From IMG/VR virus record IMGVR_UViG_2643221642_000002, positions 1 through 64,000 of that record: a stretch of 64,000 bases of DNA; one strand, given 5' to 3'. Below the pieces are notes generated by a model that had not been told where the DNA came from, ran no database searches, and was given only the letters and a program-made list of their open reading frames with translations. Within the stretch, counting starts at the first letter, position 1, and every line of letters begins with the position of its first letter. Shown here piece by piece: positions 4,600-26,549 of this stretch. Origin of the DNA: a virus. The translations under genes were made by a program, and so were the position numbers.

Positions 4600-5719
4600 G
4601 GGCCATCTCCGGCATATCGTTGTGCTCGCGGCCGTCCAGGAGACGCCCGTTGCCGCCCTTCGACGCCTTGACCATCAGGCGCCAGGCGACGCCCTCCGGC
4701 AGGTTCAGGTGGTGCCCTCGAAAGGTGCGCCCGTCGGCGCTGACGAAGGCGGTCTCCCGACCGGCGAAGAGCGACATGATGCTGTCGGCTGCGTCGTCGT
4801 CAGCGTCGACGATGTCGACCTTGGGGCCGTCCTCGTCGTGGAAGGCTTCCTTGAAGGAGCCCCACTGTTTGAAGAAAAAGGCGACGCTGGCTCGCTCGCA
4901 GTCGGAGCGGATCTTGCGCGGCCAGTCGGGGTGCATCGGTCGGGAGTCAGCACCGCTTTCGCCGCCGACGATCACCTGGTCGAGCGGCGGCAGCCGTGTG
5001 GGACAGTAGTCGCCAAACATACCGCTCAGCTCGCCGGTCAGCGCGTTCAAAACCTCCGCGCCTCGGAAGCGCAGCGTCGAGATCCTGGTGAAATCCAGCC
5101 CCTCCAGCAGGGGTTCAGCCGACACGATACGCTTGGCTGCCGGCGTTTGGAGAAGGTCGACGACGCGGACGATCCGAGCCTGGTCTTCGACGGAGACTCC
5201 CAGCCAGACGTTCGGGAGCGGGCTGGCCAGCAGCCCGGCGTCGACCAGGTCGATCAGCTGGCGACGGCCGGTGGGATGATCGACCCAGGTAAAAAGCAAG
5301 CGGTCCAGGCCGACGGGCGTGAACAGGCCGGCGACGTACTCGCGCATGGCGTCCGCGCGCTTAGTCAGGATCTGATAGGTATGGTGCGGCGTCGCGGCCA
5401 TGACCGCCCAGACCTTGTCGATCAGCGCGATCGGCACGCCTTCGGCGAACAGGTCGCTCATGCTGTTGACGAAGATCCTGCGCGGCCGGCGCCAGCGAAG
5501 CGGCTTGAAGACGACCTCGTCGGGCGCGGCGGCCATCTTGCCGGTCCAGACGAACCCGGCCTTGGTCTTCATGGTCGTGCCCGCGTAGTGCGGGACGCCG
5601 ATCGCCTCGAGGCGGCCGGCCATCTTCATAGCGTAGCAGTGCTTGCAGCCCGGGCTGACGACCTGGCAGCCCACGACGGGGTTCCAGGTCTCGTCCGTCC
5701 ATTCGATCTTGCTGGCCAT
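4592..5719 (-). CDS. Phage Gp37/Gp68 family protein (DUF5131)
   Basis: From the internal ATG at 5717-5719 (GGAG SD 7 nt upstream): MASKIEWTDETWNPVVGCQVVSPGCKHCYAM…, the hallmark N-terminus of the Gp37/Gp68 family. Confidence 0.75.
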   Translation of the reverse strand: MASKIEWTDETWNPVVGCQVVSPGCKHCYAMKMAGRLEAIGVPHYAGTTMKTKAGFVWTGKMAAAPDEVVFKPLRWRRPRRIFVNSMSDLFAEGVPIALIDKVWAVMAATPHHTYQILTKRADAMREYVAGLFTPVGLDRLLFTWVDHPTGRRQLIDLVDAGLLASPLPNVWLGVSVEDQARIVRVVDLLQTPAAKRIVSAEPLLEGLDFTRISTLRFRGAEVLNALTGELSGMFGDYCPTRLPPLDQVIVGGESGADSRPMHPDWPRKIRSDCERASVAFFFKQWGSFKEAFHDEDGPKVDIVDADDDAADSIMSLFAGRETAFVSADGRTFRGHHLNLPEGVAWRLMVKASKGGNGRLLDGREHNDMPEMAHG

Positions 5720-8588: not shown

Positions 8589-9194
8589 CTAGGCCGTCGG
8601 CTGAAGGCCCTGCAGGTGGCAGACGTCGGCCGGACGGAACACGCCGACCCTGTTCAGGCGGCGATAGCCCTCCTGGATCAGCAGAGCCTGCTCGCGGGCG
8701 TCGTCGAGCGCGTGGTGGAACACGCCTTCGCTGTGTTCGAGCTTCAGGCCGAAGAGGTCGTAGATCGTCCGGCAGTCGCGGCCGGCGTTGTAGCGCCAGG
8801 GCGGCTTGATGCCGGCGGCGCGGTAGGCCGCGCCCAGAAGGGTCTCGTCGTAGCTGGGCCCGTTGGACCAGAGGCGATCCGTCTCGTCAGCGACCGGCGC
8901 GTTGACGATGTAGAAGGCGCTGAACTCGGCCAGCACCTCCATGATGGGCCTGGTATCGACGTCGAGGGCCGCCCGGGCGACGGCGCGCTTGGGCGCATCC
9001 CACCACTCGACCGTGCCGGGATCTTCGATCAGGCCGATGGCCTTGGCGGATTCGCGGTCGATGGTCCGGTAGAACGTCCTGTCGGTCAGACCCGCGCCGG
9101 CGGGATCGAAGGCGACCGCGCCGATGGAGGCGATCGACGCCCCAGGGAAGTTCCCCCAGGTCTCCAGGTCGTGGCAGATGTGCAGCTTGATCAC
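8589..9194 (-). CDS. DEDD-type 3'-5' exonuclease (DnaQ/Rv2179c-like)
   Basis: GTG start at 9192-9194 with AAGGAG SD and a GTGA overlap with the upstream stop. Motifs: IKLHICHDLETWG (Exo I) and GVFHHALDDAREQ (H-x4-D, Exo III). Confidence 0.7.
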   Translation of the reverse strand: MIKLHICHDLETWGNFPGASIASIGAVAFDPAGAGLTDRTFYRTIDRESAKAIGLIEDPGTVEWWDAPKRAVARAALDVDTRPIMEVLAEFSAFYIVNAPVADETDRLWSNGPSYDETLLGAAYRAAGIKPPWRYNAGRDCRTIYDLFGLKLEHSEGVFHHALDDAREQALLIQEGYRRLNRVGVFRPADVCHLQGLQPTA

Positions 9195-9880
9195 GCGGCG
9201 CTCCTTTGGGCGTGGATGTGGGCCAGCAGCTGGTGGCCCAGGTGTTCGGTGAAGGCGGGCGGGATCGCCTCGGACAGCTCGTCGAGCGTCATCCAGTCGA
9301 TGCCCATGGCCTCGCTGGCGGCGGCGTTGTGGCCGCCCTCCCAGACGTCGCGCGTGCCCCGGCCGCCGCGCTTGGCGGCGCGGTTGCGGGCATGGCCGCC
9401 ATAGACGCCGATGACCGGCTTGCGGTGGACGCACGGGCCTGGCGCGCTGATCGCGATGTTGCTCTCGAACAGGCGGTGACGCTCGAGGTGGTGGCCCTGG
9501 GCCCCGAGGCCGAACATCGAGCCGCACAGCTTGATCGGTTCGATCATGTCGAACGCGGCCATCTCGACGTTCTCGATGACGTAGGGCAGGCCCAGGCCCT
9601 GCAGGATCTTGCGGATGCGGCCGATTTCCTGGGGCCGACCCTTCGCGCCCTTGGCGTGGCGCAGGGAGCTGTACCCCTGGCACTCAGGGCTGGCGTGCAC
9701 GGCGTCGGCCGCGGCGTAGAAGCCGGGCGCCAGGCCCCAGACGTCGGCCTGCATGAACTGGAACGGGTAGTTGGGCTGCGGGTCCCAATCGACGCCGATG
9801 ACGTCGAACCCGGCCTGGTGGTAGCCCATGGCCACCCCGCCGGCTTTGCAGAAGAGGTCGATCAAGACGGGCCGGGTCAT
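9191..9880 (-). CDS. Short DNA cytosine-5 methyltransferase-like protein
   Basis: 229 aa with C5-MTase motifs: I (LFCKAGGVAMG), IV (HASPECQGYS, the catalytic PC motif), VI (YVIENVE). Unusually short, with no obvious target-recognition domain. Confidence 0.7.
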   Translation of the reverse strand: MTRPVLIDLFCKAGGVAMGYHQAGFDVIGVDWDPQPNYPFQFMQADVWGLAPGFYAAADAVHASPECQGYSSLRHAKGAKGRPQEIGRIRKILQGLGLPYVIENVEMAAFDMIEPIKLCGSMFGLGAQGHHLERHRLFESNIAISAPGPCVHRKPVIGVYGGHARNRAAKRGGRGTRDVWEGGHNAAASEAMGIDWMTLDELSEAIPPAFTEHLGHQLLAHIHAQRSAA

Positions 9881-12249
9881 TGCACCAGCTCGAAATCAGG
9901 GGCCTCGAGGTAGGGCTGGTCCTCGGTGCGGACGGCCAGGGCCAGGGCCAGCGGCTGAACCCATATCGGCTCGTTCGACAGGATGAAGCTCGTCCCCGTC
10001 ATCGCCATCAGCAGGGTCTTGCCCATGACGGAAGCGATCGCCGTCGCCGAGTCCGAGGGCACGGCGTTGCCGATGCGCTCGCGCTTGTCGGCGTCGCTCT
10101 TGCCCTCCAGCTGGAAGAACCAGGCGTCCTCGAGGTTGAAGAGAGACTGGAGCGCGGCCAGCTCGAGGGTGGTGAACGGGCGGTGCCAAGTGCCATCCAG
10201 CGCGCGGATCACCGCGACCAGGCGGTCCTTGGCGTCCGGCAGCGCCAGGGCGCGCATCACCTGGGCGTCGGGCAGCACGACCCTGGGGTCGCCGACGGAC
10301 CAGAAGCCGTTGTTGTTCTTGGCGTAGGCCGGAACCGCGTTCGAGGCGTTGCGCCACGGCACGACCCCATAGTGGCCCTGGTTGGCGTAGGTATCGCGGT
10401 CCTTGTGCGCTAGGCCGATCGGCCGCGGGTCCGCGACTGACCAGCGGCCGTTGTCCCACGGGTGGGCGTTGGCCAGGACCGCGCCGGTGGTGTCGGTGTA
10501 CTTGACCACGCCGTAGTGGTCGCAGCGCACGGTCTTGTAGGCGGTCAGCCCGATCGGGCGGGGATCGGCGACGCTCAACGCGCCCGAGCCGACTCGGTCG
10601 GAGCCCGTCACCGTCCCGGCCGATCCACGGTAGCCCACGACCCGCAGCTTGTTGCGGTGGCTGTTCTCGCCGAAGCCCGTGCGCGGGTCGGCGACCGAGA
10701 ACATGCCCTGCAGTGGCGAACGGGCGGTCGTCAGGACGCCGGCGGTGTCGCGCCAGCGCATGACACCGGCCTGGCCGGTGGCCCACAGCTCAACGCGAGG
10801 GTCAGCGACCGCATAGGCGCCGTCGCCCGTGGTGCTGGCGCCGATCACCGTCCTGGACGCGCCCCTGTAGGGCGTGACGAGGTACTTGGTGTGGACGTAG
10901 TCGCTGCCGGGGTGTCGCGGGTCGGCGACGGCGGCGAGAGCCCCGCGCGCAGAGGTCACGACCGGGCCGGTGTTCTCCCAGGGCACGATCCGATAGACGT
11001 TGCTGAAGCGCGGTCCCGTGTCCTTGAAGCGAGGATCACTGATCGCGTAGGGACCCGTCCCGACCGAGACGTCGCCCTTGATGCAGGGCGCTGAACAGCT
11101 CCAGCGGCGCACGCCCAATTGAACGGACTTGTGGTGGCCGTCGACGCGGGGATCCGCGACCGAAAACACGCCCTGGCCTGGCCGCCCCTCGCGCACGACA
11201 CCGGCCGTCGCGTTGAAGGCCTGAACGCCGTAGGCGCCGGGATGCCACTGGGCCGTCTCGCGCGGGTCCGCCACCGAATAGCGGCCGGTGGTCGCCTCGG
11301 CGTTGGCAGAGATCACGCCGGCGCTGGCGCCGTAGTGCAGGACGCCGAGCGTGCCGTCGCGCCAGGGGCGTTCGGGCATGATGCCGTAGTCGCGCAGGAC
11401 GCCGTCCTCGACCACGAGATCCTTCAGTGACCGCCAGTCCTTGCCGGCCTCGACGAAAGCCAGGCGCACCCAGGTCTGCCATTGCAGCTTGGGCATGCGG
11501 TGCATGTCCGGGGCCCGGGGATCATCGGGCAGCGGCAGCTTGTCCAGGACTTCGCCGACGCCACGCAGGCGCTGCTTCGGCGGCTCGTACAGGAAGGGTT
11601 GCACCTTCGCGGCGTGGCGGGCCACCAGCAGGAACCGCTTGCGGCTCTGGGCCAGGCCGCCCAGCTCGCCGCAGTCATGGGTCGTCTCGGCCACGGCGTA
11701 GCCGTAGTAGCGAAGCATCGAGATGATCTGGTCGAGCAGGTGGCGGCCGCGCGTCGCGATCCGGGGCACGTTCTCGAAAATGATCAGTTCGATCGGGTCG
11801 TCCTGATAGGCCTCCAGGGCGAGCCATAGGCAGCGCAGCGTCAGCTCGTTCAGCGCCTGGTACTTGACCGTCTTACTGACTTCCTCGGCCAGCAGGCCCG
11901 AGAAGCCCTTGCACGGCGCCGAGATGAACAGGATGTGCGGGTGCTTGTGCTGGAAGGCGGCGTGCAGATCCTGGGGCGTCGCCTCGACGAAGTCGGCTGG
12001 CGGGGCCTTGTCGTGGAAGCGGCGATACTGGTCGACCGTGAACAGGTCGCGGACCGTACCGGGTGTCCCGGTCATGCGTCCGAAGTCACGGATCGCTGCC
12101 GGATCGACGTCGATCCCACCGATGCAGTTGAAGCGCGCGCGCAGGTTGCCGACGCGGGCTTGGCCGTTGTTGAAGCCCCGGGCCCCCGCGCCCAGGCCGC
12201 AGGCCAGGTGGGCGTGGTTGATGTCGACGTCGACGACGAGGGAGCTCAA
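9877..12249 (-). CDS. DNA cytosine-5 methyltransferase with nine tandem ~40-aa SVADPR repeats in the target-recognition domain region
   Basis: Motifs I (LACGLGAGARGF), IV (FISAPCKGFSG), VI (IIFENVPRI) and X (RERIGNAVP) are present. Between motifs VIII and IX sit nine repeats (…SVADPRE…, …SVADPRV…, …ISDPRF…, …AVADPRH…, …AVADPRV…, …SVADPRT…, …SVADPRP… ×2, …SVGDPRV…). Start uncertain: TTG 12247-12249 (GGAGGG SD, TTGA overlap) or GTG 12304-12306. Confidence 0.75.
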   Translation of the reverse strand: MSSLVVDVDINHAHLACGLGAGARGFNNGQARVGNLRARFNCIGGIDVDPAAIRDFGRMTGTPGTVRDLFTVDQYRRFHDKAPPADFVEATPQDLHAAFQHKHPHILFISAPCKGFSGLLAEEVSKTVKYQALNELTLRCLWLALEAYQDDPIELIIFENVPRIATRGRHLLDQIISMLRYYGYAVAETTHDCGELGGLAQSRKRFLLVARHAAKVQPFLYEPPKQRLRGVGEVLDKLPLPDDPRAPDMHRMPKLQWQTWVRLAFVEAGKDWRSLKDLVVEDGVLRDYGIMPERPWRDGTLGVLHYGASAGVISANAEATTGRYSVADPRETAQWHPGAYGVQAFNATAGVVREGRPGQGVFSVADPRVDGHHKSVQLGVRRWSCSAPCIKGDVSVGTGPYAISDPRFKDTGPRFSNVYRIVPWENTGPVVTSARGALAAVADPRHPGSDYVHTKYLVTPYRGASRTVIGASTTGDGAYAVADPRVELWATGQAGVMRWRDTAGVLTTARSPLQGMFSVADPRTGFGENSHRNKLRVVGYRGSAGTVTGSDRVGSGALSVADPRPIGLTAYKTVRCDHYGVVKYTDTTGAVLANAHPWDNGRWSVADPRPIGLAHKDRDTYANQGHYGVVPWRNASNAVPAYAKNNNGFWSVGDPRVVLPDAQVMRALALPDAKDRLVAVIRALDGTWHRPFTTLELAALQSLFNLEDAWFFQLEGKSDADKRERIGNAVPSDSATAIASVMGKTLLMAMTGTSFILSNEPIWVQPLALALAVRTEDQPYLEAPDFELVQ

Positions 12250-12566
12250 TGTGCGCCCTCCGACAGGGCGACGACGCCAGCGACCCTCACGCGCAGTTCC
12301 CTGCACATGGCAGGTCCAGTGTCGGGCTTGCCGGAGGCGTGGCCCAACGAAAAGGCGTCGGCGTCGAAGTGGCCGATCACCGCCTGCTGGCAGGCCAACG
12401 AGATCAGGTAGTCGGCGTGGACAACACCTGCTTCCGGGATCGTGAGCAGGTCGACGACCGGCGGCGCGTCGCCTTCGTCAGCGCGGATCCGCCGTTCGGC
12501 TTCCGCAAAGAGGTCCGCCAGCTGCGCGCGGGTGATCGTGAGCGTGGTGATGCTAAGGAGGGCCAC
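12246..12566 (-). CDS. Hypothetical protein
   Basis: 106-aa ORF with a GTG start; coupled to flanking genes. Confidence 0.45.
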   Translation of the reverse strand: MALLSITTLTITRAQLADLFAEAERRIRADEGDAPPVVDLLTIPEAGVVHADYLISLACQQAVIGHFDADAFSLGHASGKPDTGPAMCRELRVRVAGVVALSEGAH

Positions 12567-13796: not shown

Positions 13797-14108
13797 CTAG
13801 TTGAGGGTTGCTGACCGCACGGTGTAGGACCCGTTGGAGGAGGTGCACGACGCTTCGCCAGAAAAGCGGCTCCGGATCGGTACGCCGTAAGAGTTTTGAG
13901 CATCGACCTGGCCGATGATCAGGTACTCGTGCACGCCGGTTGTGATCGTTGTGACTTCGATAAATTTAGCTGTGCTCGGCGCTTTCAGTTGGCCGCGGAT
14001 CGCGTCCTTGACCGCCTTTTCAGCGCCGATCGGCATGCATGCCAGGTCCGAGCAACCCGTCAGCATTGTCGCTCCCGCCAGTGCTGCGGCTAGAAAAACG
14101 GCGCGCAT
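13797..14108 (-). CDS. Small lipoprotein co-transcribed with the CI repressor
   Basis: 103 aa from the ATG 14106-14108 (TGATG coupling with cI); signal peptide MRAVFLAAALAGATMLTGC with lipobox LTGC. Confidence 0.6.
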   Translation of the reverse strand: MRAVFLAAALAGATMLTGCSDLACMPIGAEKAVKDAIRGQLKAPSTAKFIEVTTITTGVHEYLIIGQVDAQNSYGVPIRSRFSGEASCTSSNGSYTVRSATLN

Positions 14109-14770
14109 CAGGCGGCCGTATGGTCGAGGCGAATGATCTTCTCCGCCTGGTGTGGGGGCGCGATCCAAGCGATGTGTGCAACCCAGACTAGGCGCTGATC
14201 TTCGAGCGTCGGCGCCTGCAGCGATTGCAGGTCGTAGACGTCCTTGTTGCTGCCCTTCATCAGTCGCTTGAACACGATCTCGCCGCTCTCAAGCTGGCAG
14301 AATACCAGGCGATGAAGCATGTCCTTCGTCGGCTCAGGCAGGCGCTCGTCGTAGTAGATCAGCGATCCGTCATCGACGACGCTTCTATAGGCGTGGCCTT
14401 CGACCTTCAAGATCACGACGTCCTCGCTGGCCCCCGGCGGGATAGGGGCATACTCCCTGGCCTGGCCGGAGGTGAAAGCGACCGAGTCGTCCGGCATGGC
14501 GCCCAGCTTGCCGACGATGCGGCCCATGCGCTCGCTCGGCCCGAACATCAAAAACTCAGGCGTCGTGCGGAACTTCTTTGCGAAGACCTCGGCCTTCTTT
14601 CTAGAGAACGGACTCGTGCCGTTCTCATGCTGGATATAGGTGTTGCGGCTTAGCCCTAGGGCCTCGGCGGCGTCGGTCGCCGTCTCGTAACCGGCGCCCT
14701 CGCGGGAGGCCTTGAGCCTCGCTCCGGCCTCTCGGTTCTTCTGACGGGTTTTGGCGTCGGTCGTGGACAT
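14108..14770 (-). CDS. cI: CI-like repressor (XRE HTH + LexA-like S24 peptidase domain)
   Basis: N-terminal HTH (…ATDAAEALGLSRNTYIQHENGTS…) and C-terminal S24 autopeptidase region (…VVILKVEGHAYRSVVDDGSLIYYD…KRLMKG…). Divergent from cro with three operators in between. Confidence 0.85.
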   Translation of the reverse strand: MSTTDAKTRQKNREAGARLKASREGAGYETATDAAEALGLSRNTYIQHENGTSPFSRKKAEVFAKKFRTTPEFLMFGPSERMGRIVGKLGAMPDDSVAFTSGQAREYAPIPPGASEDVVILKVEGHAYRSVVDDGSLIYYDERLPEPTKDMLHRLVFCQLESGEIVFKRLMKGSNKDVYDLQSLQAPTLEDQRLVWVAHIAWIAPPHQAEKIIRLDHTAA

Positions 14771-14777
14771 TTCACGA
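14761..14777. promoter_or_regulatory. Operator OR3 (TCGTGGACATTTCACGA), overlapping the cI start codon
   Basis: Imperfect copy of the 17-bp operator; the spacer contains the cI ATG (14768-14770). Confidence 0.55.
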
Positions 14778-14792
14778 TTTTACCGGCGCTGA

Positions 14793-14809
14793 TCGTGAAT
14801 GGTTCACGA
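14793..14809. promoter_or_regulatory. Operator OR2 (TCGTGAATGGTTCACGA)
   Basis: Perfect half-sites; 32 bp from OR3 and 35 bp from OR1 (centre-to-centre). Confidence 0.6.
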
Positions 14810-14816
14810 TCTGGGC

Positions 14817-14844
14817 TTGACCTTTCATCGTGAAAATTTCACGA
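14817..14844 (+). promoter_or_regulatory. PR-like promoter (-35 TTGACC) with operator OR1 (TCGTGAAAATTTCACGA, 14828-14844) over the -10 region
   Basis: -35 hexamer at 14817-14822, 5 nt upstream of OR1. Same geometry as the leftward promoter (TTGACA-N5-operator). OR1 abuts the first ATG of the cro frame. Confidence 0.6.
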
Positions 14845-14852
14845 TGCTTGGC

Positions 14853-16724: not shown

Positions 16725-16760
16725 GACCGCACCCAGAAACGCGGTCGGGGTTAGGTTTTA
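16725..16760 (+). terminator. Weak hairpin + T-rich tract (possible partial terminator)
   Basis: GACCGC-N10-GCGGTC followed by GGGGTTAGGTTTTA. Confidence 0.25.
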
Positions 16761-16773
16761 GGGGGATGGCGCG

Positions 16774-17415
16774 ATGGCCAACCGGAATCCGTTGCAGGTG
16801 TTCTACGACAAGGTCGTCGAACTCTTCGCTGAACGCGACGAGATCAATCAGCGGATCGCTGAGACGAAAGCCGCCGCTGCCAAGCGCGGGTTCTCGAAGA
16901 AGGTGCTCAACAACGTGCTGCGACGCGCGAAGTTGACGCCCGAACAGCGCGAGGAAGAAGACGCGCTGACCCAGATCTACGAAGGCGCCCTGGGAATGTT
17001 GGGCGGAACGCCTCTCGGCGAGGCCGCTCTGCGCCGACTTTCCGAGGAGCGCAAGCGCCGGCCGGAAGGCGGTGACGATGAAGACTCCGAGCTGCCGTTC
17101 AGCGACGACGACGAACAGGAGCCGCCCGGCGGCGCCAGCGGTGACGTCGTTGCGGACGATCCCGTCGTCGAGGACAGCCAGGATGAGGCCCGAGCGAAGG
17201 GCGCGGCCGCCGCTCAGTCCGGTCAGCCGGTCCTGGCCAACCCCTACAAGCCGCGCACCAAGCAGCGCGGGTGGTGGGACGAGGCGTGGTGCCAGGCCAG
17301 CGGCTCGGACGGCATGGACATCCCCGAGGCCTGGCGTCCGACGCCGAAGCCGAAGAAGGGCGGGCCGAAGCCCGAGGGCGAAGGTGGCGAGGGCTCGGAA
17401 GGCGGTGACGCGTGA
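16774..17415 (+). CDS. GapR-like (DUF2312) DNA-binding protein fused to an acidic linker and a C-terminal RMF-like motif
   Basis: N-terminus: LQVFYDKVVELFAERDEINQRIAETKAAAAKRGFSKKVLNNVLRRAKLTPEQREEEDALTQIYEGALGM aligns to the GapR/DUF2312 core (…IKEVYAEAKGNGFDVKAMRTIIKLRK…EEEAVLETYMAALGM). C-terminus: NPYKPRTKQRGWWDEAWCQA resembles the ribosome modulation factor signature (CPYQTLNQRSQWLGGWREA). Confidence 0.7.
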   Translation: MANRNPLQVFYDKVVELFAERDEINQRIAETKAAAAKRGFSKKVLNNVLRRAKLTPEQREEEDALTQIYEGALGMLGGTPLGEAALRRLSEERKRRPEGGDDEDSELPFSDDDEQEPPGGASGDVVADDPVVEDSQDEARAKGAAAAQSGQPVLANPYKPRTKQRGWWDEAWCQASGSDGMDIPEAWRPTPKPKKGGPKPEGEGGEGSEGGDA

Positions 17416-18797: not shown

Positions 18798-19493
18798 GTG
18801 GCCGGTTTCCCGTGGACCGACGAAAACAAGCTTCTGGCCGCCGACTGGTTCGTCAAGGATGAGCTGTCGTGCTCGCAGATCGCCAGGAAGCTGTCCGAAA
18901 AATACAAGCATTCTGTCACGCGCAACGCCGTGATCGGCATGCTGTCGCGTAGGGGCATCACGACCGATAGCCGCGCGGCCAAGCCCGAGAAGCCCCGGAC
19001 CTTCAGCCGATCGGTACCTGTCGCGCCTCGGCCGCCGCCGGCCCAGGCCAGTCTCGGCCCCAAGACCTATCCGGGCGGCCCCCGCGCGGTGCTGACGCCC
19101 GAAGCGGCGGCGCCTGACGTCGTTCCCATCGGCAAGCCACCCCTGCCCATGCCGCCGCCAGAACTGGTCGTGGTCGGCCAGGCGGTGCTGCTGGTGGACT
19201 TCGTGCGTGGCGATGACGGAGTCCTGGTCGATCGCGGCCTGAAGGCCTCGTGCTGCAAGTACCCGGTCGGCCCGACTCCGCCGATCGGCGAGATGCACCT
19301 GCAGCTTTTCTGCGCCGCGGGCACCGGCGACCCGATGCGGCCGTATTGCGACTGCCACGAGCGCGTCGCCTGGAAGCCGTCGAACCCCGCCAGCAAGGCC
19401 AAGGTCATCAAGGCGGCCATCGGCGCCGCACACCGCGACATGGTGGCCCGGAACCGCGTGCGCGGCCCGAACAGCTCGCGCGCCGTGATCTAG
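18798..19493 (+). CDS. GcrA-like cell-cycle regulator family protein
   Basis: N-terminus WTDENKLLAADWFVKDELSCSQIARKL…SVTRNAVIGMLSRRG, and C-terminal Cys/His module CCKYPVGPTPPIGEMHLQLFCAAGTGDPMRPYCDCHERVAWKP, as in GcrA (PF07750). Confidence 0.75.
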   Translation: MAGFPWTDENKLLAADWFVKDELSCSQIARKLSEKYKHSVTRNAVIGMLSRRGITTDSRAAKPEKPRTFSRSVPVAPRPPPAQASLGPKTYPGGPRAVLTPEAAAPDVVPIGKPPLPMPPPELVVVGQAVLLVDFVRGDDGVLVDRGLKASCCKYPVGPTPPIGEMHLQLFCAAGTGDPMRPYCDCHERVAWKPSNPASKAKVIKAAIGAAHRDMVARNRVRGPNSSRAVI

Positions 19494-19793: not shown

Positions 19794-20005
19794 TCGGATC
19801 GACAGCAGAGCAAGCCGGCTACATCGCCGCCGCCGCCGTAGACAAGGCGTCTCAGAAGTTCGGGGTCGAGGTGGCGAAATCGCTCGCGATCGCGTTCTTG
19901 TGCGCCTGGGCGGTCGCATTGAAGCGCCTGCTCGGCCCGAAAGCCGCGAGCGAGATTGTCTACCAGGTCGCCGACCAGGTGGCGGCGCCGGAGGAAGACG
20001 TTTGA
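19790..20005 (+). CDS. Hypothetical small protein (GTG start)
   Basis: 71 aa; GTGA overlap upstream and TTGA overlap downstream. Confidence 0.35.
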   Translation: MIGSTAEQAGYIAAAAVDKASQKFGVEVAKSLAIAFLCAWAVALKRLLGPKAASEIVYQVADQVAAPEEDV

Positions 20006-21117
20006 CCGTCTCCATCCTCGTCGGCGACTGCCTGGCCCAGCTGCGCGCCCTACCCAGCAACAGCGTTCACACCTGCATCTGCAGCCCGCCGTATTTCCGG
20101 CTGCGCGACTACGACGTCAAAGGCCAGATCGGGCTGGAGAGGACGCCGGCCGCCTACATCAAGAAGCTGGTCGCGGTGTTCCGCGAAGTCCGCCGGGTCC
20201 TGCGCAAGGACGGCACGCTGTGGGTCAACATCGGCGACAGCTACGTCTCGGTCGGCGGAACAGCGGGCCGCCAAACCGGACAGAAGTTCGCCGATCGGCG
20301 TCGCGGCAAGGAAGACATCTGCAAGGGGGCGCGGATCAAGACTGCATCGCGGAAAGGCGCGGGGTTGAAGCCCAAGGATTTGATCGGCATCCCGTGGATG
20401 CTGGCTTTCGCACTGCGTGAGGATGGATGGTTCCTGCGCCAAGACATCATCTGGAACAAGCCGAACCCCATGCCCGAGAGCGTGGAGGATCGCTGCACCA
20501 AGTCGCACGAGTACATTTTCCTGCTGAGCAAGTCTCGCCGGTACTACTTCGACGCGGGTGCGATCGCTGAACCGATCACGACCGATCCGAAGGAGCGCTA
20601 CGAACAGCGCGCGAGGGTGACCGGTCGGGGAGAACAGGCAGCCGCGGCAGCCCGGGGTCAGGATCGGGACAAGTCAGGTGGCTTTCCGCCAAGGCGCCGC
20701 TCAGGAAACCTGGCAAGGAAACCCGGTGCCGCACGTGGTTGTCCGGACGGAACTGGGGCCAATGTCTGCGGCTCTATTCCTTGGGAGGGGTCTGAGCGGA
20801 ACAAGCGTTCGGTGTGGACCGTGGCTTCAAAGCCTCTGAAGGTCGCGCACTTCGCGGCCTATCCGCCTGAGTTGATCACCCCATGCGTGTTGGCGGGAAG
20901 TCCACGGGGGGGGGTAGTACTCGACCCGTTCGGCGGGGCCGGCACGACAGCGCTGGTCGCCGAACGGCTGGGGCGCGACTCCATCCTGATCGAACTCAAT
21001 CCCGACTACGCGGCCATGGCCCAGCGTCGTCTGAAGAACGAGCTGGCGATGGTGTCTGGGGCGGACGACCGGCGCGGCCTCGAGCCGCTGCCGTTGTTCG
21101 ACGGGGCTGCCGCATGA
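20002..21117 (+). CDS. Beta-class DNA methyltransferase (N6-adenine or N4-cytosine; SPPY motif)
   Basis: N-terminal motif IV …VHTCICSPPYF…; C-terminal motif I VLDPFGGAGTTALVA. This is the beta-class (CcrM/HinfI-type) motif order. S-P-P-Y is the variant usually seen in N4-cytosine enzymes. TTG start with a GGAGGA SD. Confidence 0.75.
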   Translation: MTVSILVGDCLAQLRALPSNSVHTCICSPPYFRLRDYDVKGQIGLERTPAAYIKKLVAVFREVRRVLRKDGTLWVNIGDSYVSVGGTAGRQTGQKFADRRRGKEDICKGARIKTASRKGAGLKPKDLIGIPWMLAFALREDGWFLRQDIIWNKPNPMPESVEDRCTKSHEYIFLLSKSRRYYFDAGAIAEPITTDPKERYEQRARVTGRGEQAAAAARGQDRDKSGGFPPRRRSGNLARKPGAARGCPDGTGANVCGSIPWEGSERNKRSVWTVASKPLKVAHFAAYPPELITPCVLAGSPRGGVVLDPFGGAGTTALVAERLGRDSILIELNPDYAAMAQRRLKNELAMVSGADDRRGLEPLPLFDGAAA

Positions 21118-21635: not shown

Positions 21636-23236
21636 GCCGCTTCGACGACCACTTTATCGACGAGCTGAAGGCCCGGCTGCGGCCCTCGGACGTGATCGGC
21701 AAGACGGTGAAGCTGCGCCGCGCCGGGCGCGAGTATTCCGGTCTGTCGCCCTTCACCAAGGAGAAGAGCCCGTCGTTCTTCGTCAACGACGAGAAGGGCT
21801 TCTACCACTGCTTCTCCAGCGGCAAGCACGGCGACATCATCGAGTTTCTGGTCGAGACCGAGCGCCTGTCGTTCCCGGAGGCGGTCGAGCGCCTGGCCGC
21901 CGAGGCGGGCATGGCCTTGCCGGCGGCCGACCCGCAAGCGGCCGAGATGGACCGGCGCCGCGCGAGCCTGACCGACTGGCTGGATCTGGCCACCACCTGG
22001 TTCGAGGCGCAGTTGCGCCGGCCGGTGGGGCAGGGCGCCCGAGCCTATCTCGAGGGGCGCGGCCTGCCCGAGAGCGAGTGGTCGCGCTTCAAGATCGGCT
22101 ATGCCCCGGAAGGCCGCACGGCCCTGAAGGACTATCTGGTCGCCAAGGGCGCTCGCCCGGGCGAGCTGGTCGCCGCGGGGATCCTGGTCGACGAGGAGAA
22201 CGGCACGGCGCCGTTCGACCGCTTCCGCGACCGGATCATCTTCCCGATCACCGATGCGCGCGGGAAGATCATCTCGTTCGGCGGCCGGGCCCTGAACCCG
22301 TCGGCGAAGGCCAAGTACCTGAACGGGCCGGAGACGGTGCTGTTCGACAAGGGTCGCACGCTCTACGGCCTGTTCGAGGCCCGGCGGATTCAACACGCCG
22401 GCGGCGTCGACGCCGACCTAGCGGTGGTCGAGGGCTATATGGATGTGATCGCCTGCCAGCGGGCGGGGATCGCGGCCGTCGCGCCGATGGGCACGGCGCT
22501 GACCGAGGGCCAGATGCTGGCGCTGTGGCGCTTCCATCACGAGCCGACCCTGTGCTTCGACGGCGACGCCGCCGGCCAGCGCGCCGCCTGGCGCGCGATC
22601 GAACGGGCGCTGCCGCTCCTGGAGCCGCGGCGGACGTTCAAGTTCACCCTGCCCGTGGGCGGCAAGGACCCCGACGATGTGCTGCGCGAGCAGGGCGTGG
22701 CCGCGCTTGTCGCCCAACTTCGCCAGACGCGGCCGCTGGTCGAGCTGCTGTTCGAACACGAGCGCGCCGTCGACGCCTTGGCGACGCCGGAGCAGCGCGC
22801 CGGCCTGCGCGGGCGCCTTCGCCTCGCCGCGCGGACCATCCAGCACGCGGACCTCTCCAGCGCCTACATGCGCGACCTGATGGGCCGCTATGACGCCCAG
22901 TTCCAGGATCTGCGCCGGGGCCAAGGCCCGCGCGGGCGTTGGGCGGCGCCGAAGGCCGGCGCCACGCCCGAGCTGAAGGTCGCCGCGTCCACCCTGGCGA
23001 GCGGTCGGCCGACCATCGACACGATCCTGGCCAAGTCCGAGGTCTCGCCGGCGGAGTCGGCGCTGTTCGACCTGCTGACCGAGCAGGAAGACGTCGATCG
23101 CCGCATCGCTGACGCCCGCGCGCGCCTGGCCGAGCCCGGCGCGCTGGACGAGCTGGTGGCGCTGAAGGCCGAGCGCGGGCGCGTGGCCGAGGCCGTGAAG
23201 GCCGCGAGATTTCAAGATCAGGGAGCAGCCGCATGA
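21632..23236 (+). CDS. dnaG: DNA primase DnaG-like
   Basis: N-terminal CHC2-type zinc-finger region (…SPFTKEKSPSFFVNDEKGFYHCFSSGKHGDIIEF…) followed by a TOPRIM core (…VVEGYMDVIA…FDGDAAGQRAA…). The zinc-finger ligands look partly substituted. Confidence 0.8.
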   Translation: MSRFDDHFIDELKARLRPSDVIGKTVKLRRAGREYSGLSPFTKEKSPSFFVNDEKGFYHCFSSGKHGDIIEFLVETERLSFPEAVERLAAEAGMALPAADPQAAEMDRRRASLTDWLDLATTWFEAQLRRPVGQGARAYLEGRGLPESEWSRFKIGYAPEGRTALKDYLVAKGARPGELVAAGILVDEENGTAPFDRFRDRIIFPITDARGKIISFGGRALNPSAKAKYLNGPETVLFDKGRTLYGLFEARRIQHAGGVDADLAVVEGYMDVIACQRAGIAAVAPMGTALTEGQMLALWRFHHEPTLCFDGDAAGQRAAWRAIERALPLLEPRRTFKFTLPVGGKDPDDVLREQGVAALVAQLRQTRPLVELLFEHERAVDALATPEQRAGLRGRLRLAARTIQHADLSSAYMRDLMGRYDAQFQDLRRGQGPRGRWAAPKAGATPELKVAASTLASGRPTIDTILAKSEVSPAESALFDLLTEQEDVDRRIADARARLAEPGALDELVALKAERGRVAEAVKAARFQDQGAAA

Positions 23237-23901
23237 TCTTCTCGGATGCGGAAGAACGCGTGCGCGCCGCGACGGTAGCCATGCTGCGGGCCGAGTTCCC
23301 AGCCGCCAGGATCATTCACGAGCTGGAGATCGGCGGCGCCAGGCTGGATGTCGCCGCGATCGACCACGACCGGATCGTGGTCTGCGAGATCAAGTCCGAG
23401 AAGGACAGCCTGAAGCGGCTGGCGCATCAGTCAAAATTCGCGCTGTCGGTCAGCGACGACTACCGCGTGATCTGTACGTCGAAGCACGTCGACCAGATCC
23501 TGGGCTTCCGCGAAATCTACGTGACGGTCGATGGGCGCCAAGTCGTCAACAAGAACTTCAATGAGCACTTGCGCGCTGCGACGGTCTGGCTTGAGAGCGG
23601 CGGCCAGCTCCAGAAGGTGAGCAAACCGCTGAAGTGGTACGGCCGCCGCCGCATCCTGGCCGAGTCCGTCCTGAGCCTGATGCACGTCCATGAGGTGAAG
23701 GCGGCGTTGCGGCATCTGGGCGCCAAGTCGCGCTGGACCGGCTCCGACCTTTGCACCTTCGCGATGGAGCACATGTCGGGTGGCGATATTCGGCGCCTGG
23801 TCTGCGCCAGCCTCCGCGCCCGCCGGTTCGCGCGCGCTGACGACCCCTTCACCATCGGAGAAGTGTCGATGAGTTTCAGTACTGCCGTCGTCCATGGCTG
23901 A
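23233..23901 (+). CDS. MmcB-like PD-(D/E)XK nuclease family protein
   Basis: …RIIHELEIGGARLDVAAIDHDRIVVCEIKSEKDS… matches the E…D…E-I-K core of MmcB/DUF1052. Confidence 0.55.
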   Translation: MIFSDAEERVRAATVAMLRAEFPAARIIHELEIGGARLDVAAIDHDRIVVCEIKSEKDSLKRLAHQSKFALSVSDDYRVICTSKHVDQILGFREIYVTVDGRQVVNKNFNEHLRAATVWLESGGQLQKVSKPLKWYGRRRILAESVLSLMHVHEVKAALRHLGAKSRWTGSDLCTFAMEHMSGGDIRRLVCASLRARRFARADDPFTIGEVSMSFSTAVVHG

Positions 23902-25358: not shown

Positions 25359-26549
25359 ATGACGCACGCCCAATTGCCCGACCCGCTTACCTCGACCGAC
25401 TGCGATCTGCGCGGCCTGCCGTACATGCCGTTTGAGGTGCAGAACATCCTGATCTCCGACCTGGTCCTGCTCTCGACCGGAGACGAGTTCAAGGCCGCCA
25501 TGCTGCTGCGCGCGGCCTCGTGGAGCCGGATCCCGGCCGCATCCCTTCCGGACGAGCCGCGCGCCTTGGCCAAGCTGGCCGGCGTCGACTTCTGCGATTG
25601 GGAGAAGGTCAAGGATCGCGCCCTTCATGGCTGGGTCAAATGCTCGGACGGGTTCCTCTACCACCCGGACGTCGCGGATCGGGCGATGAACGCCCTGCCG
25701 GATCATCAGGTCTTCCAGGAAAAGCGGTCGGGCGACGCGGCCCGCAAACGGCGCGAGCGCGACGATCGCCGGCGCCTGTTCGAAGAAGCTTCGGGTCTGA
25801 ACCTGTCGGTCGCCTTCAACACCAAGACGAGCGACCTGCGCCGGTTGGTGGCGGACGCCATGGTCACGCGTGACCAGCGTGACAAGTCACGCGTGACAAG
25901 TCACGGCGAACAACGTGACCAAGACCGTGACCGTCCCCATGACATGTCACGATCTGAAGCTGTGACGGGTCACGAAAAAGTCACGGCTAGAAAGGGAAAG
26001 GGAAAAGAAGATTCCCCCCAACCCCCCACGGGGGGCGATCGTGACAGGTTCGACGAGGCATGGTCGGTCTTGCACGACAAATCCCGTGGTCCGGCGGACA
26101 TGGGCATGGCGCGGACCTTGTGGCGGGAGTTCATCGCTAGCGGCGAGATCGACGCCGACGGGCTGTTCGCGGCGACGAAAGCGGTCTCCGACGTCGTCTT
26201 CGCCTCGGGCGGTAAGCAGCCGATGAAGGCCTTCCACCGTTGGCTCAAGCTGCGCGAATGGCAGAACTGGGCGCCGACGGGCGGGCAGCCGAAGAGCCAC
26301 TGGACGGGGCCGGATCACATCCGTGACGCGATCATCGCCCAGGTCGCCAAGACCCGCTGCAGCCGCAAGGAAGGCGAGGCCTTCGCCGCCAGCTGGCTCG
26401 ACAGCGTGACGACGTGGAGCGACGTGCCTGCGGCGATCGTCTGCCTGGCCACAACGGTCGAGAAGAAGCTGCGGACCACGGTCGGCAAGATGCTGGTCGA
26501 CGAGTTCGGCGTGCAGGTGATCGTCAAGGCCGCCGGGGAGGCCGCCTGA
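25359..26549 (+). CDS. DUF1376-domain replication initiation protein (lambda-O-like role)
   Basis: N-terminal DUF1376 signature (LPYMPFEVQNILISDLVLLSTGDEFKAAMLLRAASWSR…). The central low-complexity linker is encoded by iteron-like DNA. Confidence 0.65.
   Translation: MTHAQLPDPLTSTDCDLRGLPYMPFEVQNILISDLVLLSTGDEFKAAMLLRAASWSRIPAASLPDEPRALAKLAGVDFCDWEKVKDRALHGWVKCSDGFLYHPDVADRAMNALPDHQVFQEKRSGDAARKRRERDDRRRLFEEASGLNLSVAFNTKTSDLRRLVADAMVTRDQRDKSRVTSHGEQRDQDRDRPHDMSRSEAVTGHEKVTARKGKGKEDSPQPPTGGDRDRFDEAWSVLHDKSRGPADMGMARTLWREFIASGEIDADGLFAATKAVSDVVFASGGKQPMKAFHRWLKLREWQNWAPTGGQPKSHWTGPDHIRDAIIAQVAKTRCSRKEGEAFAASWLDSVTTWSDVPAAIVCLATTVEKKLRTTVGKMLVDEFGVQVIVKAAGEAA
25862..26050. repeat. Iteron-like palindromic repeats + A-rich/C-rich tract (candidate origin of replication)
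   Basis: GGTCACGCGTGACC (25862-25875); tandem GCGTGACAAGTCAC ×2 (25877-25904); further GTGAC/GTCAC half-sites to ~25990; then aaagggaaagggaaaagaag and ccccccaaccccccacgggggg. Confidence 0.55.

Follow-up and report, generated by a model that had tools for sequence, protein, structure and literature searches.

The DNA analysed here, referred to as the window, is a stretch of 64,000 nt covering positions 1 to 64,000 of the IMG/VR virus record IMGVR_UViG_2643221642_000002. It holds a lambda-like siphovirus prophage of Caulobacter, with genes for terminase gpA, a lambda-type portal, a protease-capsid fusion, a tail tube, a tape measure, and a gpJ-like protein. The window carries a gene joining a GapR-type domain to a domain that resembles the ribosome modulation factor (RMF), and the siphovirus genes around it confirm the earlier suggestion that this gene is phage-encoded. 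The gene lies at the coordinates given in the original prediction, and every peptide string cited there occurs in its product. Caulobacter sp. Root343 has a protein, annotated as 'GapR family DNA-binding domain-containing protein', that is 100% identical to this product, and the MANRN start is common to the fusion protein and its close homologues in the alignment. The following features, all on the + strand, were recognized at the locus.

16757..16763, +, likely ribosome-binding site AGGGGGA (purine-rich), 10-16 nt before the ATG, read from the sequence
16774..17415, +, GapR-Rmf-fold fusion gene, ATG start, 213 aa plus stop, from the list of open reading frames
16786..16995, +, GapR DNA-binding/oligomerisation domain, aa 5-74, three helices (PF10073, PDB GapR matches, AlphaFold2)
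17002..17061, +, conserved family-specific extension GGTPLGEAALRRL..., aa 77-96, with a predicted helix at 80-95 and no counterpart in host GapR
17062..17172, +, acidic Pro/Ala-rich disordered linker, aa 97-133 (composition, AlphaFold2)
17173..17301, +, Rmf/CrpP-fold helix hairpin, aa 134-176, A-R-x-x-G-x-x-A-A-x-x-G ... N-P-Y ... R-x-x-W-D-E-x-W-C
17302..17361, +, invariant coil motif G-S-D-G-M-D-I-P-E-A-W, then a basic patch, PKPKK, aa 177-196 (58-sequence alignment)
17362..17412, +, variable Gly/Glu-rich C-terminal tail, aa 197-213, poorly aligned and of low pLDDT
17412..18353, +, classical-clade AAA+ ATPase, the partner, 313 aa from a GTG at 17412 that overlaps the fusion gene's TGA as GTGA

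The fusion gene and the ATPase gene lie 3' of a divergent HTH repressor gene with three operator-like palindromes, on the strand of the lytic early operon and opposite that of the repressor. The genes for primase, DnaB, and DUF1376 are all downstream of the pair, and the ATPase gene is flanked by the GapR fusion upstream and by DUF1064 downstream. No second GapR or Rmf-like domain, such as a possible host gapR, was found across the window. Four parts make up the fusion protein itself: a GapR-type three-helix clamp domain comes first, a short conserved helix and an acidic disordered tether follow, and the C-terminal part is an Rmf/CrpP-fold hairpin that ends in GSDGMDIPEAW.

GapR is an essential nucleoid protein of Caulobacter, which senses positive supercoils. 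The original prediction assigned the N-terminus to GapR/DUF2312, and profile comparison bears this out, with the whole protein scoring 38.3 bits against PF10073 (GapR_DNA-bd; gathering score 22.6) over aa 5-74, that is, profile positions 3-72 of 72, and the N-terminal half alone scoring 41.4 bits. The solved GapR structures 6CG8, 6JYK, and 6OZX were matched by phmmer at E = 1e-6, and AlphaFold2 places the three helices at residues 6-37, 42-53, and 56-72 with pLDDT of 90-98. The GapR equivalog NF052541, however, scored 27.7 bits against a cut-off of 140, and the protein belongs to the PF10073 family without being a GapR orthologue.

The basic residues of the GapR DNA channel are K34, K42, K49, K56, K59, K60, R63, and K66 (PMC7498317, PMC7373187). 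Six of these eight positions are basic in the consensus of the 58 family sequences, with K or R in 40-50 of them (50 at K34, 44 at K42, 45 at K49, 43 at K56, 48 at R63, and 40 at K66); the structural residues R65 and E28 are kept in 48 sequences each. The family as a whole looks competent to bind DNA by these residues. The window protein retains four of the eight (R21, K43, R50, and K53), with A29, A36, N46, and N47 at the others, and it shares with its Caulobacter-clade relatives the substitutions K42A, K49A, K59N, K60N, E28V, E31F, E47A, and R65A. The E28-R65 pair, which forms an intra-dimer salt bridge in GapR, is thereby changed on both sides (V15 and A52). Because several GapR DNA-contact and salt-bridge residues are lost, DNA binding is less certain for the window member than for the family as a whole. 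The oligomerisation core shows a different pattern, as the tetramer-core Y82 of GapR corresponds to Y69 in the window protein and is kept in 56 of the 58 sequences, and I78, L81, and I86 are represented by L, I, and L.

These residues bear on the possibility that the protein antagonizes host GapR, a rival explanation in line with the competition with, or redirection of, host GapR suggested in the original prediction. According to this alternative, the phage GapR domain would form mixed oligomers with the essential host protein through the helix-3 tetramer interface and pass it to the AAA+ unfoldase via the Rmf-fold module. Once host GapR was removed from DNA, host replication would be shut down or AT-rich phage DNA would be relieved of bound GapR. 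The conserved tetramer core (Y82, L81, I78, and I86) would suit such an interface, and a window protein that lacks four of eight DNA-contact basic residues yet keeps the oligomerisation core fits a 'poison subunit', by a logic like that of the truncated H-NS-like proteins that counter H-NS. In addition, the partner is an AAA+ protein of the classical unfoldase type, and the family is found nearly exclusively in Alphaproteobacteria, the clade that possesses GapR (PMC13408042). However, most family members keep the DNA-contact lysines, and with V15 and A52 in place of E28 and R65, mixed coiled-coil dimers between the window protein and host GapR would be disfavoured (PMC7498317). We consider host-GapR antagonism unlikely, though it deserves to be kept in view.

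The C-terminal end of C. crescentus GapR aligns with aa 75-76 of the fusion protein, and the extension that follows is specific to the family. T79, P80, L81, G82, A84, A85, and R88 are invariant or nearly so among the 58 sequences, and the AlphaFold2 helix at 80-95 has a pLDDT of about 75. The long acidic linker described from the sequence is evident in the composition of aa 97-133, with 15 D/E, no K/R, and a pI of 4.05, and aa 100-128 are predicted to be disordered (AlphaFold2 pLDDT <50). The linker carries a net negative charge in 58 of 58 relatives, with a length of 16-94 aa and no conservation of sequence. In the relatives P0004-P0008 an FtsK-gamma domain is inserted into it, and family variants repeatedly carry extra FtsK-gamma winged-helix DNA-binding domains.

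The Rmf-fold module is the best-conserved region of the 58-member family. In an alignment of 37 module sequences (40-86% identical to the window module), 10 columns are invariant, and 33 of the 37 modules matched the RMF profile PF04957 on their own at E up to 0.1, the best at E = 2.2e-6; a precomputed PF04957 match is also present for two relatives. AlphaFold2 predicted helices at 136-149 and 163-176 with pLDDT >90, and for two AlphaFold2 models the top Foldseek match in the PDB is a solved RMF (2JRM and 9IOT_y; TM 0.53-0.73). The module contains a two-helix hairpin with an x-P-Y turn and paired Trp residues in helix 2, and its alignment by hhalign with RMF spans the whole RMF fold (P = 0.0013-0.0018). 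In this alignment NPY pairs with the CPY of RMF and WWDEAW with its WLGGW, the same correspondence that had been proposed by eye. The coil motif that follows is also strongly constrained, with G177, D179, G180, M181, and P184 invariant in the 58 sequences and G[ST]DGM retained in a shorter 'GSDGMGP' subfamily.

None of the curated cut-offs was reached by the module, however: PF04957 scored 19.1-20.5 bits against 27.9 (19.1 bits, E = 1.4e-3, for the window protein), NF041887 16.7 against 40, NF041886 15.6 against 28, and NF033696 13.8 against 55, the three NCBIfam models (Rmf_like_phage, Rmf_CrpP_fam, and CrpP_fam) matching the window protein at E = 0.004-0.05. Sequence similarity to true RMF is weak, since the module profile retrieved no RMF chain among PDB sequences, the sole match being a 30-residue NXF1 peptide (E = 0.16). 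The invariant L-G-G and R45 of RMF are absent from the module. E. coli RMF has a pI of 10.9, whereas module pI has a median of 5.0 in the family (range 4.2-8.2), the window protein being at 8.2; VEDSQDE precedes helix 1 where RMF has KRQKRDR. The module is RMF-like in fold and superfamily only and is not a true RMF, and it is in the former sense that the predicted RMF-like C-terminus stands.

The same observations speak to the idea that the module controls translation, acting as a true RMF that would bind the 30S subunit near the anti-Shine-Dalgarno, silence ribosomes, and perhaps tether them to DNA. Similarity in fold and sequence does extend across the whole RMF core, as this idea would expect. 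However, the pI values, the missing KRQKRDR, L-G-G, and R45, the failure at the PF04957, NF041886, and NF041887 cut-offs, and the RMF chains left unretrieved by the module profile all oppose it, and the tight linkage to an AAA+ ATPase and a DNA clamp is unparalleled in RMF biology. A function in ribosome hibernation seems unlikely on sequence grounds, since the module is near-neutral to acidic and lacks the basic N-terminal stretch of RMF, and translation control as an account of the whole locus is highly improbable. Least probable of all is that the resemblance is a chance motif in a functionless low-complexity tail, an explanation to which we give almost no credence, as the family conserves no other part of the protein so well as the module, which has 10 invariant columns, is modelled with high pLDDT, and recovers PF04957 in 33 of 37 cases and RMF as the top Foldseek match for both models; its conservation across about 260 clusters effectively refutes it. 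Taken over both halves, profile searches place GapR above threshold and RMF below threshold yet consistently, and do not support a chance match.

The ATPase gene downstream begins at the overlapping GTG, or it may start instead at the ATG at 17433 (306 aa), which is the start annotated by NCBI. Its product scored 100.9 bits against PF00004, and its closest solved relatives are VCP/Cdc48/PAN. Among 78 non-redundant homologues the Walker A motif GPPGTGKT, the Walker B DE, the sensor 1 ATN, and the arginine fingers RR in the second region of homology are 98-100% conserved. Most of the ATPases have an aromatic-hydrophobic-Gly pore loop, the residue being aromatic in only about 60-70%. Judged from these motifs, the partner ATPase looks active.

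In 120 of 123 loci (70/72 viral and 50/51 genome loci) the gene directly 3' of the fusion encodes the AAA protein. Two of the three exceptions end at a contig edge, and the third has an internal deletion that leaves the last 15 AAA codons. A 4-nt overlap of the fusion stop with the AAA start is seen in 79 loci and a 1-nt overlap in 10; in 11 more the two are <=30 nt apart. In a reverse search from three AAA homologues, the fusion gene was found directly upstream in 3 of 3, and the remaining neighbours of the cassette differ among loci. Pairwise identities of the module correlate with those of the AAA protein at 0.53, no lower than the 0.48 between the two halves of the fusion protein, although this mirror-tree correlation is modest and confounded by shared ancestry. 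This near-obligate, translationally coupled partner, which was missed in the original prediction, is the most informative feature of the locus.

Together the fusion and AAA genes make up a conserved, usually translationally coupled two-gene cassette, which temperate phages of Alphaproteobacteria carry in their early rightward (replication/recombination) region. Such a position within the replication module raises the possibility of an accessory to replication initiation, in which the fusion protein would bind or shape the phage origin and the ATPase would load the helicase or remodel the origin, in the way of lambda O/P or DnaA/DnaC. DnaB comes directly after the ATPase in several loci (L026, L031, L053, and L059), and initiator-like genes of the HTH_36 or DUF1376 type are close by. 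However, the ATPase belongs to the classical Cdc48/PAN/FtsH clade and not to DnaA/DnaC/IstB, DnaB is present in the flanks of only 15 of the 123 loci, and a separate initiator candidate is already present in the window prophage (DUF1376, whose gene contains palindromic repeats), together with DnaB and DnaG. Neither origin-like repeats, iterons, nor an AT-rich island was found at the cassette in the window sequence. On this evidence an initiation accessory appears rather improbable.

Among named profiles, IetA/IteA matches the ATPase best, with 179 bits to the PADLOC IetA models, for which PADLOC has no curated cut-off, and 159 bits (159.2) to NCBIfam IteA. It might be speculated from this match that the two genes are a defence or superinfection-exclusion pair akin to IetAS, with the fusion protein in place of IetS as sensor or effector, and in a few loci the cassette does sit among conflict genes, adjoining Tad2-like and Acb2/Tad1 anti-defence genes. 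The IteA score is nevertheless far under the equivalog cut-off of 510, and no protease like the subtilisin-like IetS was present in any locus examined: it is absent beside the window cassette, and in related loci the 84 flanking genes, for which 25 families were listed, include no protease family. The fusion protein matched no PADLOC model, and the cassette belongs to the lytic early operon, which runs opposite to the repressor, and occurs in cultured phages too. A defence role is accordingly given little weight and regarded as very doubtful.

The module is carried by about 260 clusters at 50% identity, nearly all from Alphaproteobacteria and nearly always fused to GapR. A GapR domain is present in 121 of 147 module representatives, and the remainder are mostly fragments or frameshifts. 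Proteins that looked like a stand-alone module or a module-AAA fusion were rejected as separate architectures: P0201 is a frameshifted fusion gene; P0205 is truncated at a contig end; and P0111 has a middle section that looks out-of-frame and is probably an assembly artefact. Databases annotate the family as GapR/DUF2312/UPF0335 only, and among the PHROGs the GapR half alone was matched (phrog_4212, E = 1.6e-9). No paper describing the fusion architecture was found in the literature on such a fusion, on GapR with AAA or prophage, on CrpP with RMF, or on RcMeacham. The GapR-Rmf-fold/AAA two-gene unit is undescribed; the view that the fusion was new holds for the literature, and the databases already contain it in those clusters under their GapR labels.

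As a tentative preferred reading, held at somewhat less than an even chance, we propose that in early phage DNA transactions an AAA+ remodeller docks on the Rmf-fold module, which an acidic tether links to a GapR-type clamp on DNA. Much like GapR itself, the GapR domain would oligomerise into a tetrameric clamp that binds AT-rich or overtwisted DNA. The Rmf-fold module with its terminal motif would serve as a protein-protein docking module and not as a ribosome binder, and from its flexible acidic tether it would couple the DNA-bound clamp to the AAA+ hexamer. The docking role of the Rmf-fold domain is a guess from its context. The ATPase may then spend ATP on remodelling, loading, or stripping the clamp, or on DNA-bound proteins at places where the clamp recruits it, and the cassette would thereby help the phage, soon after induction, to replicate its DNA and manage DNA topology.

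A further conceivable, though improbable, extension of this clamp-and-remodeller reading is that the cassette is a phage 'chromatin segregase'. Here the clamp would find DNA, possibly overtwisted DNA ahead of forks or sites bound by host GapR, and would recruit the Cdc48-like unfoldase via the repurposed RMF-fold domain; the unfoldase would then pull proteins off the DNA, whether nucleoid proteins such as host GapR or the clamp itself. If true, the cassette would be a bacterial-virus counterpart of the adaptor-directed extraction of proteins from chromatin by Cdc48/p97, and it would provide the first role assigned to an Rmf/CrpP-fold domain outside ribosome hibernation.

The loading and removal of the closed tetrameric clamp of GapR are still debated, and a widespread phage version of GapR, hard-wired to an AAA+ ATPase via a conserved add-on domain, suggests that clamps of the GapR type can be actively remodelled. 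The cassette also points to a dedicated two-gene tool with which DNA topology or host nucleoid proteins would be manipulated by phages of Alphaproteobacteria. As well, the poorly understood Rmf/CrpP-fold domains of mobile elements, such as CrpP and the phage Rmf-like proteins, gain a testable context as a protein-interaction module and not as a ribosome binder or antibiotic kinase. Because the cassette is carried by the cultured Rhodobacter capsulatus phages RcMeacham and RcKvothe and by the Caulobacter isolate Root343, genetics and biochemistry are feasible now.

Among known systems, GapR of C. crescentus (CCNA_03428; PF10073/DUF2312/UPF0335) is similar to the fusion protein in its full-length domain match, three-helix layout, tetramer-core Tyr, and hydrophobic helix 3, and the family shares most of its DNA-contact lysines and its range in Alphaproteobacteria. 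Unlike GapR, the fusion protein is phage-encoded with a dedicated AAA+ partner, is only about 30% identical, and has about 140 extra residues comprising the conserved helix, the acidic tether, the Rmf-fold module, and the motif. RMF (PF04957; 2JRM, 9IOT chain y) and the Rmf/CrpP families NF041886, NF041887 (phage Rmf-like), and NF033696 (CrpP) share the two-helix hairpin, and RMF and the module agree in how the small residues of helix 1 are spaced, in the x-P-Y/F turn, and in having two Trp in helix 2. However, RMF is a stand-alone, strongly basic protein of 55 aa, whereas the module is the near-neutral to acidic terminal domain of a DNA-binding protein and has the extra invariant extension GSDGM(DIPEAW).

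IetA/IteA of the IetAS plasmid-stability and anti-phage system resembles the partner ATPase as a single classical-clade AAA+ module of about 300-400 aa. The conserved partner of IetA is the protease IetS, whereas here it is the GapR-Rmf-fold protein in a phage early operon.

GapR-fold proteins without the Rmf-fold module are already known from phages. T4 DsbA was stated to be a GapR homologue (PMC7824862), Erythrobacter phage R34L1 has a stand-alone GapR (PMC12185513), and Caulobacter phage DMCA has a stand-alone GapR-only gene that no AAA+ ATPase gene adjoins; these proteins and PHROG 4212 have the GapR fold as here, but lack the module. The cultured carriers of the cassette are the Rhodobacter phages RcMeacham (gp58/gp59) and RcKvothe. 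A tblastn search of the module against cultured phages gave no match, a result that reflects insensitivity, since hhalign detects a C-terminal Rmf-fold module beside the GapR domain in RcMeacham gp58 (probability 98.2%, E = 5e-14). The next gene, which overlaps gp58 by 4 nt, encodes an AAA ATPase that is 40% identical to that of the window, and the two genes were annotated just as 'hypothetical protein' and 'AAA-ATPase'. Compared with the window protein, gp58 is longer (441 aa), bears two FtsK-gamma-like winged helices at its N-terminus, and stops at the related motif GGDGF, lacking DIPEAW...KPKK.

The fusion gene is rightly called phage-encoded, as the original prediction had it, because the window holds a lambda-like siphovirus prophage; the position predicted for the open reading frame (ORF) and all of the peptide strings quoted from it were confirmed as well. 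Its product shares 100% identity with the database protein 'GapR family DNA-binding domain-containing protein [Caulobacter sp. Root343]'. The G+C content of the window is 64-71%, and no tRNA genes were found in it. The fusion gene and the AAA+ ATPase gene downstream of it, together referred to as the cassette, and the other main features are as follows:

14108-14770, minus strand: HTH_31 repressor gene, divergent, upstream of the cassette
10-16 nt 5' of the fusion-gene ATG, plus strand: purine-rich AGGGGGA, from reading the sequence
16774-17415, plus strand: fusion gene, ATG start, 213 aa, from the ORF list
from 17412, plus strand: AAA ATPase ORF, 313 aa from GTG; GTGA at 17412-17415 overlaps the fusion-gene stop
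29597-31576: terminase gpA
31793-33301: lambda-family portal
33331-35529: protease-capsid fusion in one 732-aa ORF, with prohead serine protease Peptidase_S78 (aa 90-190) and major capsid Phage_capsid_4 (aa 447-728)
37337-38293: tail tube
39791-44311: tape measure
46062-50291: gpJ-like protein

A profile of the C-terminal module was searched exhaustively by HMMER against 1.84 billion representative proteins, yielding 260 clusters with E ≤ 1e-3, 140 of them with E ≤ 1e-10. An N-terminal GapR domain is present in 121 of the best 147 module proteins, while the remaining ones without GapR are mostly fragments. Two database proteins considered as modules without GapR were rejected, P0201 being a frameshifted fusion gene and P0205 being truncated by a contig end. 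FtsK-gamma winged helices were found within the linker of five other database proteins (P0004-P0008) and at the C-terminus of P0094, and gp58 of Rhodobacter phage RcMeacham (locus L130, 1802-3127) carries two N-terminal winged helices of this type; the fusion scaffold evidently tolerates additional DNA-binding modules. A shorter subfamily ends with GSDGMGP. The metagenome protein P0189 (288 aa), which contains four Rmf-like repeats in tandem (NPx...AWxxGW) and lacks the GapR domain, puts this small fold to another use. The loci collected number 72 from IMG/VR viral contigs and 51 from species-representative genomes. Their hosts are nearly all Alphaproteobacteria (Rhodospirillales, Sphingomonadales, Hyphomicrobiales, Caulobacterales, and Acetobacteraceae), and the two that do not fit are metagenome bins.

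When the window's neighbouring genes were searched by tblastn against all 123 loci, an ATPase homologue (35-77% identity) was found directly 3' of the fusion gene in 70/72 viral and 50/51 genome loci, and no other neighbour was conserved. The two viral loci without it end within ~500 nt of the fusion gene, and the sole such genome locus (L079, 3578-4270, from a Sphingomonadales MAG) is a decayed copy with an internal deletion, in which the fusion ORF reads on through the final ~15 codons of the ATPase gene (...LSDLPWPPERAA); the next ORF there, 4491-4901 on the minus strand, presumably encodes a HicB-type antitoxin. In 79/123 loci the fusion-gene stop shares 4 nt with the ATPase start, in 10 it shares 1 nt, and in a further 11 the two are no more than 30 nt apart. 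For the window ATPase itself the start is ambiguous, NCBI placing it at ATG 17433, seven codons later, which gives 306 aa. In the reverse direction, three ATPase homologues (43-49% identity) from Azospirillum sp. B510, a JGI metagenome contig, and Sphingomonas paucimobilis all have a GapR gene directly 5', with the module in the same ORF. The pairing of the fusion gene with the ATPase gene is thus near-obligate and mostly overlapping. It also occurs in the cultured phage RcMeacham, where gp58 (441 aa) comprises a GapR domain and a terminal Rmf-fold module (hhalign probability 98.2%, E = 5e-14) and gp59, an 'AAA-ATPase' with 40% identity to that of the window, overlaps it by 4 nt; the query match in RcKvothe has equal coordinates and identity. 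In contrast, the GapR of Caulobacter phage DMCA (89 aa) lacks the module, and no ATPase lies next to it. Over 78 loci, pairwise-identity correlations were modest, with 0.53 for module/ATPase, 0.40 for GapR domain/ATPase, and 0.48 for GapR domain/module. The ATPase thus follows the module no less closely than the fusion protein's own halves follow each other; because the control leaves shared ancestry in, this lends weak support to the partnership. Other neighbours were much sparser across the 123 loci (DnaB 15, HTH repressor 13, DUF1064 8, DUF1376 8, MTase 3, and GcrA 2), and the Pfam families matched by 84 flanking genes formed a shifting mix of DnaB, RusA, VRR-NUC, SSB, methylases, DUF5131, Tad2-like, HNH, ParB, and sliding clamp, as is usual for the mosaic early region of a phage.

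The window ATPase matches PF00004 with 100.9 bits, and its nearest solved relatives are VCP/Cdc48/PAN. Among 78 non-redundant homologues, Walker A, Walker B (DE), the sensor-1 Asn, and a double arginine finger are 98-100% conserved, and most of them have an aromatic-hydrophobic-Gly pore loop, that of the window protein being K-Y-V-N. Because of these profile matches and conserved motifs, the partner appears to be an AAA+ ATPase that is active and remodels proteins. Among named profiles, IetA/IteA fits it best (179 bits in PADLOC), which raises the question of an IetAS-like defence pair. This seems quite unlikely, since the NCBIfam score (159 bits) falls far under the equivalog cut-off of 510, no IetS-type protease was found among the window neighbours or the 84 flanking genes of related loci, and the cassette sits in a lytic operon.

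The GapR/DUF2312 assignment of the N-terminus was upheld by Pfam, in which PF10073 (GapR_DNA-bd) covers aa 5-74 (profile positions 3-72 of 72) at 38.3 bits (gathering score 22.6), and by phmmer, which matched the solved GapR structures 6CG8, 6JYK, and 6OZX at ~E = 1e-6, aligned from GapR L20 to E88. AlphaFold2 with the 58-sequence family alignment predicted helices at 6-37, 42-53, and 56-72 (pLDDT 90-98). With only 27.7 bits against a cut-off of 140 in the host-GapR equivalog model, the window protein is a GapR family member and not a GapR orthologue. The DNA contacts or structural residues of GapR include K34, K42, K49, K56, R63, K66, E28-R65, and Y82 (PMC7498317, PMC7373187). When residues from these two studies were mapped onto the 58 family sequences, K or R occupied the six basic positions in 40-50 of them, the E28-R65 salt-bridge pair was retained in 48, and tetramer-core Y82 in 56. 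The window protein and its nearest Caulobacter-clade relatives form a derived subgroup, which retains R21, K43, R50, K53, and Y69 and carries K42A, K49A, K59N, K60N, E28V, E31F, E47A, and R65A. These lost DNA-contact residues, together with the taxonomic range, would fit an antagonist of host GapR; however, such residues are retained in most of the family and mixed dimers are disfavoured by the paired change E28V/R65A, leaving this function doubtful.

Beyond the GapR fold, the protein continues with three segments around the module:

aa 77-96: conserved GGTPLGEAA(L/R)xRL segment C-terminal to the GapR fold, predicted helix 80-95, no counterpart in host GapR
aa 97-133: disordered linker rich in P, A, D, and E
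after the hairpin: invariant GSDGMDIPEAW, then a basic PKPKK patch, then a variable Gly/Glu-rich tail

The linker is net negative in 58/58 relatives, with a length of 16 to 94 aa and an unconserved sequence. The best-conserved part of the 58-sequence alignment is the C-terminal region (consensus ARxxGxxAAxxGxxVxxNPYxAxDPRRAAWDEGWCxAxGSDGMDIPEAWRR; G150, N156, R165, D169, C173, G177, D179, G180, M181, and P184 invariant), and this conservation refutes a chance motif, whose probability is practically negligible. The C-terminus resembles ribosome modulation factor (RMF) in fold: PF04957 matches 33/37 isolated modules scanned singly (best E = 2.2e-6), and the module profile spans the whole RMF core in hhalign (P = 0.0018 against E. 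coli RMF, 0.0013 against 20 true RMFs), with A-x-x-G-x-x-A-x-x-x-G, (N/C)-P-Y, and W-x-x-x-W paired as originally proposed. A two-helix hairpin (136-149 and 163-176, pLDDT >90) was predicted by AlphaFold2 from both the full-length protein and the module alone, and RMF ranked first for both models in Foldseek among 350,542 PDB chains (2JRM, probability 0.91 and 0.94; 9IOT chain y, probability 0.95, target TM 0.73); the shortness of the domain keeps the E-values weak (0.4-0.9). A true RMF, though, is not what was found. The window protein scores under threshold against PF04957 (E = 1.4e-3, 19.1 bits vs 27.9), as well as against NF041887 Rmf_like_phage, NF041886 Rmf_CrpP_fam, and NF033696 CrpP_fam, although these hits all agree in direction, and the family-level matches make the resemblance solid. 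The module is near-neutral to acidic (median pI 5.0, range 4.2-8.2, vs 10.9 in E. coli RMF), has an acidic stretch before helix 1 where RMF has KRQKRDR, and lacks the invariant L41-G42-G43 and R45. We concluded that it is an Rmf/CrpP-fold domain and not a ribosome modulation factor; with charge and signature residues wrong, RMF-like ribosome binding is very improbable.

In the prophage, three copies of an 18-nt palindrome (consensus about ATCGTGAAAATTTCACGAT; spacing 32 and 35 nt) lie at 14761-14845, just 5' of the HTH_31 repressor start, the first overlapping its first codons, and look like operator sites of the immunity switch. The rightward operon runs from the fusion gene through ATPase, DUF1064, GcrA-like, N6/N4 methylase, DnaG-type primase, sce7726-family, and DnaB to DUF1376. 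A role of the cassette as an origin or helicase-loading accessory is unlikely: no AT-rich island or iterons were found at it, the ATPase is not of the AAA+ clade that such a role calls for, and the prophage has a candidate initiator outside the cassette, namely the likely initiator encoded by DUF1376 (25359-26549). Overlapping GTCACGCGTGAC palindromes within that gene (25863-25905), adjoined by a local G+C dip (0.59 at 25900-26099), are a candidate phage origin laid out as in lambda O.

The GcrA-like protein (18798-19493; PF07750, far under the GcrA equivalog cut-off) and the N6/N4 DNA methylase (19900-21117), shortly 3' of the cassette, are phage-borne versions of regulator types from the Caulobacter cell cycle, and the DUF1064-GcrA synteny is common to this prophage and phage DMCA. 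The sce7726-family protein (222 aa, 23233-23901), between primase and DnaB, scores 63.5 bits with NF033832, just below the cut-off of 70. Left of the immunity region, the minus strand of the window encodes an Rv2179c-like 3'-5' exoribonuclease-domain protein (8589-9683) and a protein of 808 aa that includes a C-5 cytosine methylase domain (9877-12306).

Tentatively, we favour a reading in which the GapR domain would form a clamp on DNA, the Rmf-fold module and GSDGM motif on their acidic tether would serve as a handle linking the clamp to the ATPase, and the ATPase would remodel the clamp, or DNA-bound proteins at it, in early phage DNA transactions. The cassette has clear limits and a wide distribution, can be studied in cultured phages, and bears on GapR-clamp handling; the function proposed for it here is a prediction from sequence.

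The GapR fold, the Rmf/CrpP fold, classical AAA+ ATPases, and GapR-fold proteins in phages are already known. The prediction of an undescribed architecture holds for the literature, in which no GapR-Rmf-fold fusion with a dedicated ATPase partner was found; it does not hold for databases, where members are named only as GapR family, DUF2312, or UPF0335, and the partner as 'ATP-binding protein' or 'AAA family ATPase'. GapR was called the first identified in a phage genome in the Erythrobacter phage R34L1 paper (PMC12185513), while RcMeacham and RcKvothe had been reported in 2022 (PMC9753621) and T4 DsbA is a phage GapR-fold protein (PMC7824862). PHROG 4212 is a further such phage family and, together with RcMeacham, RcKvothe, DMCA, and the 72 IMG/VR contigs, shows that phages of Alphaproteobacteria commonly carry GapR-fold genes.
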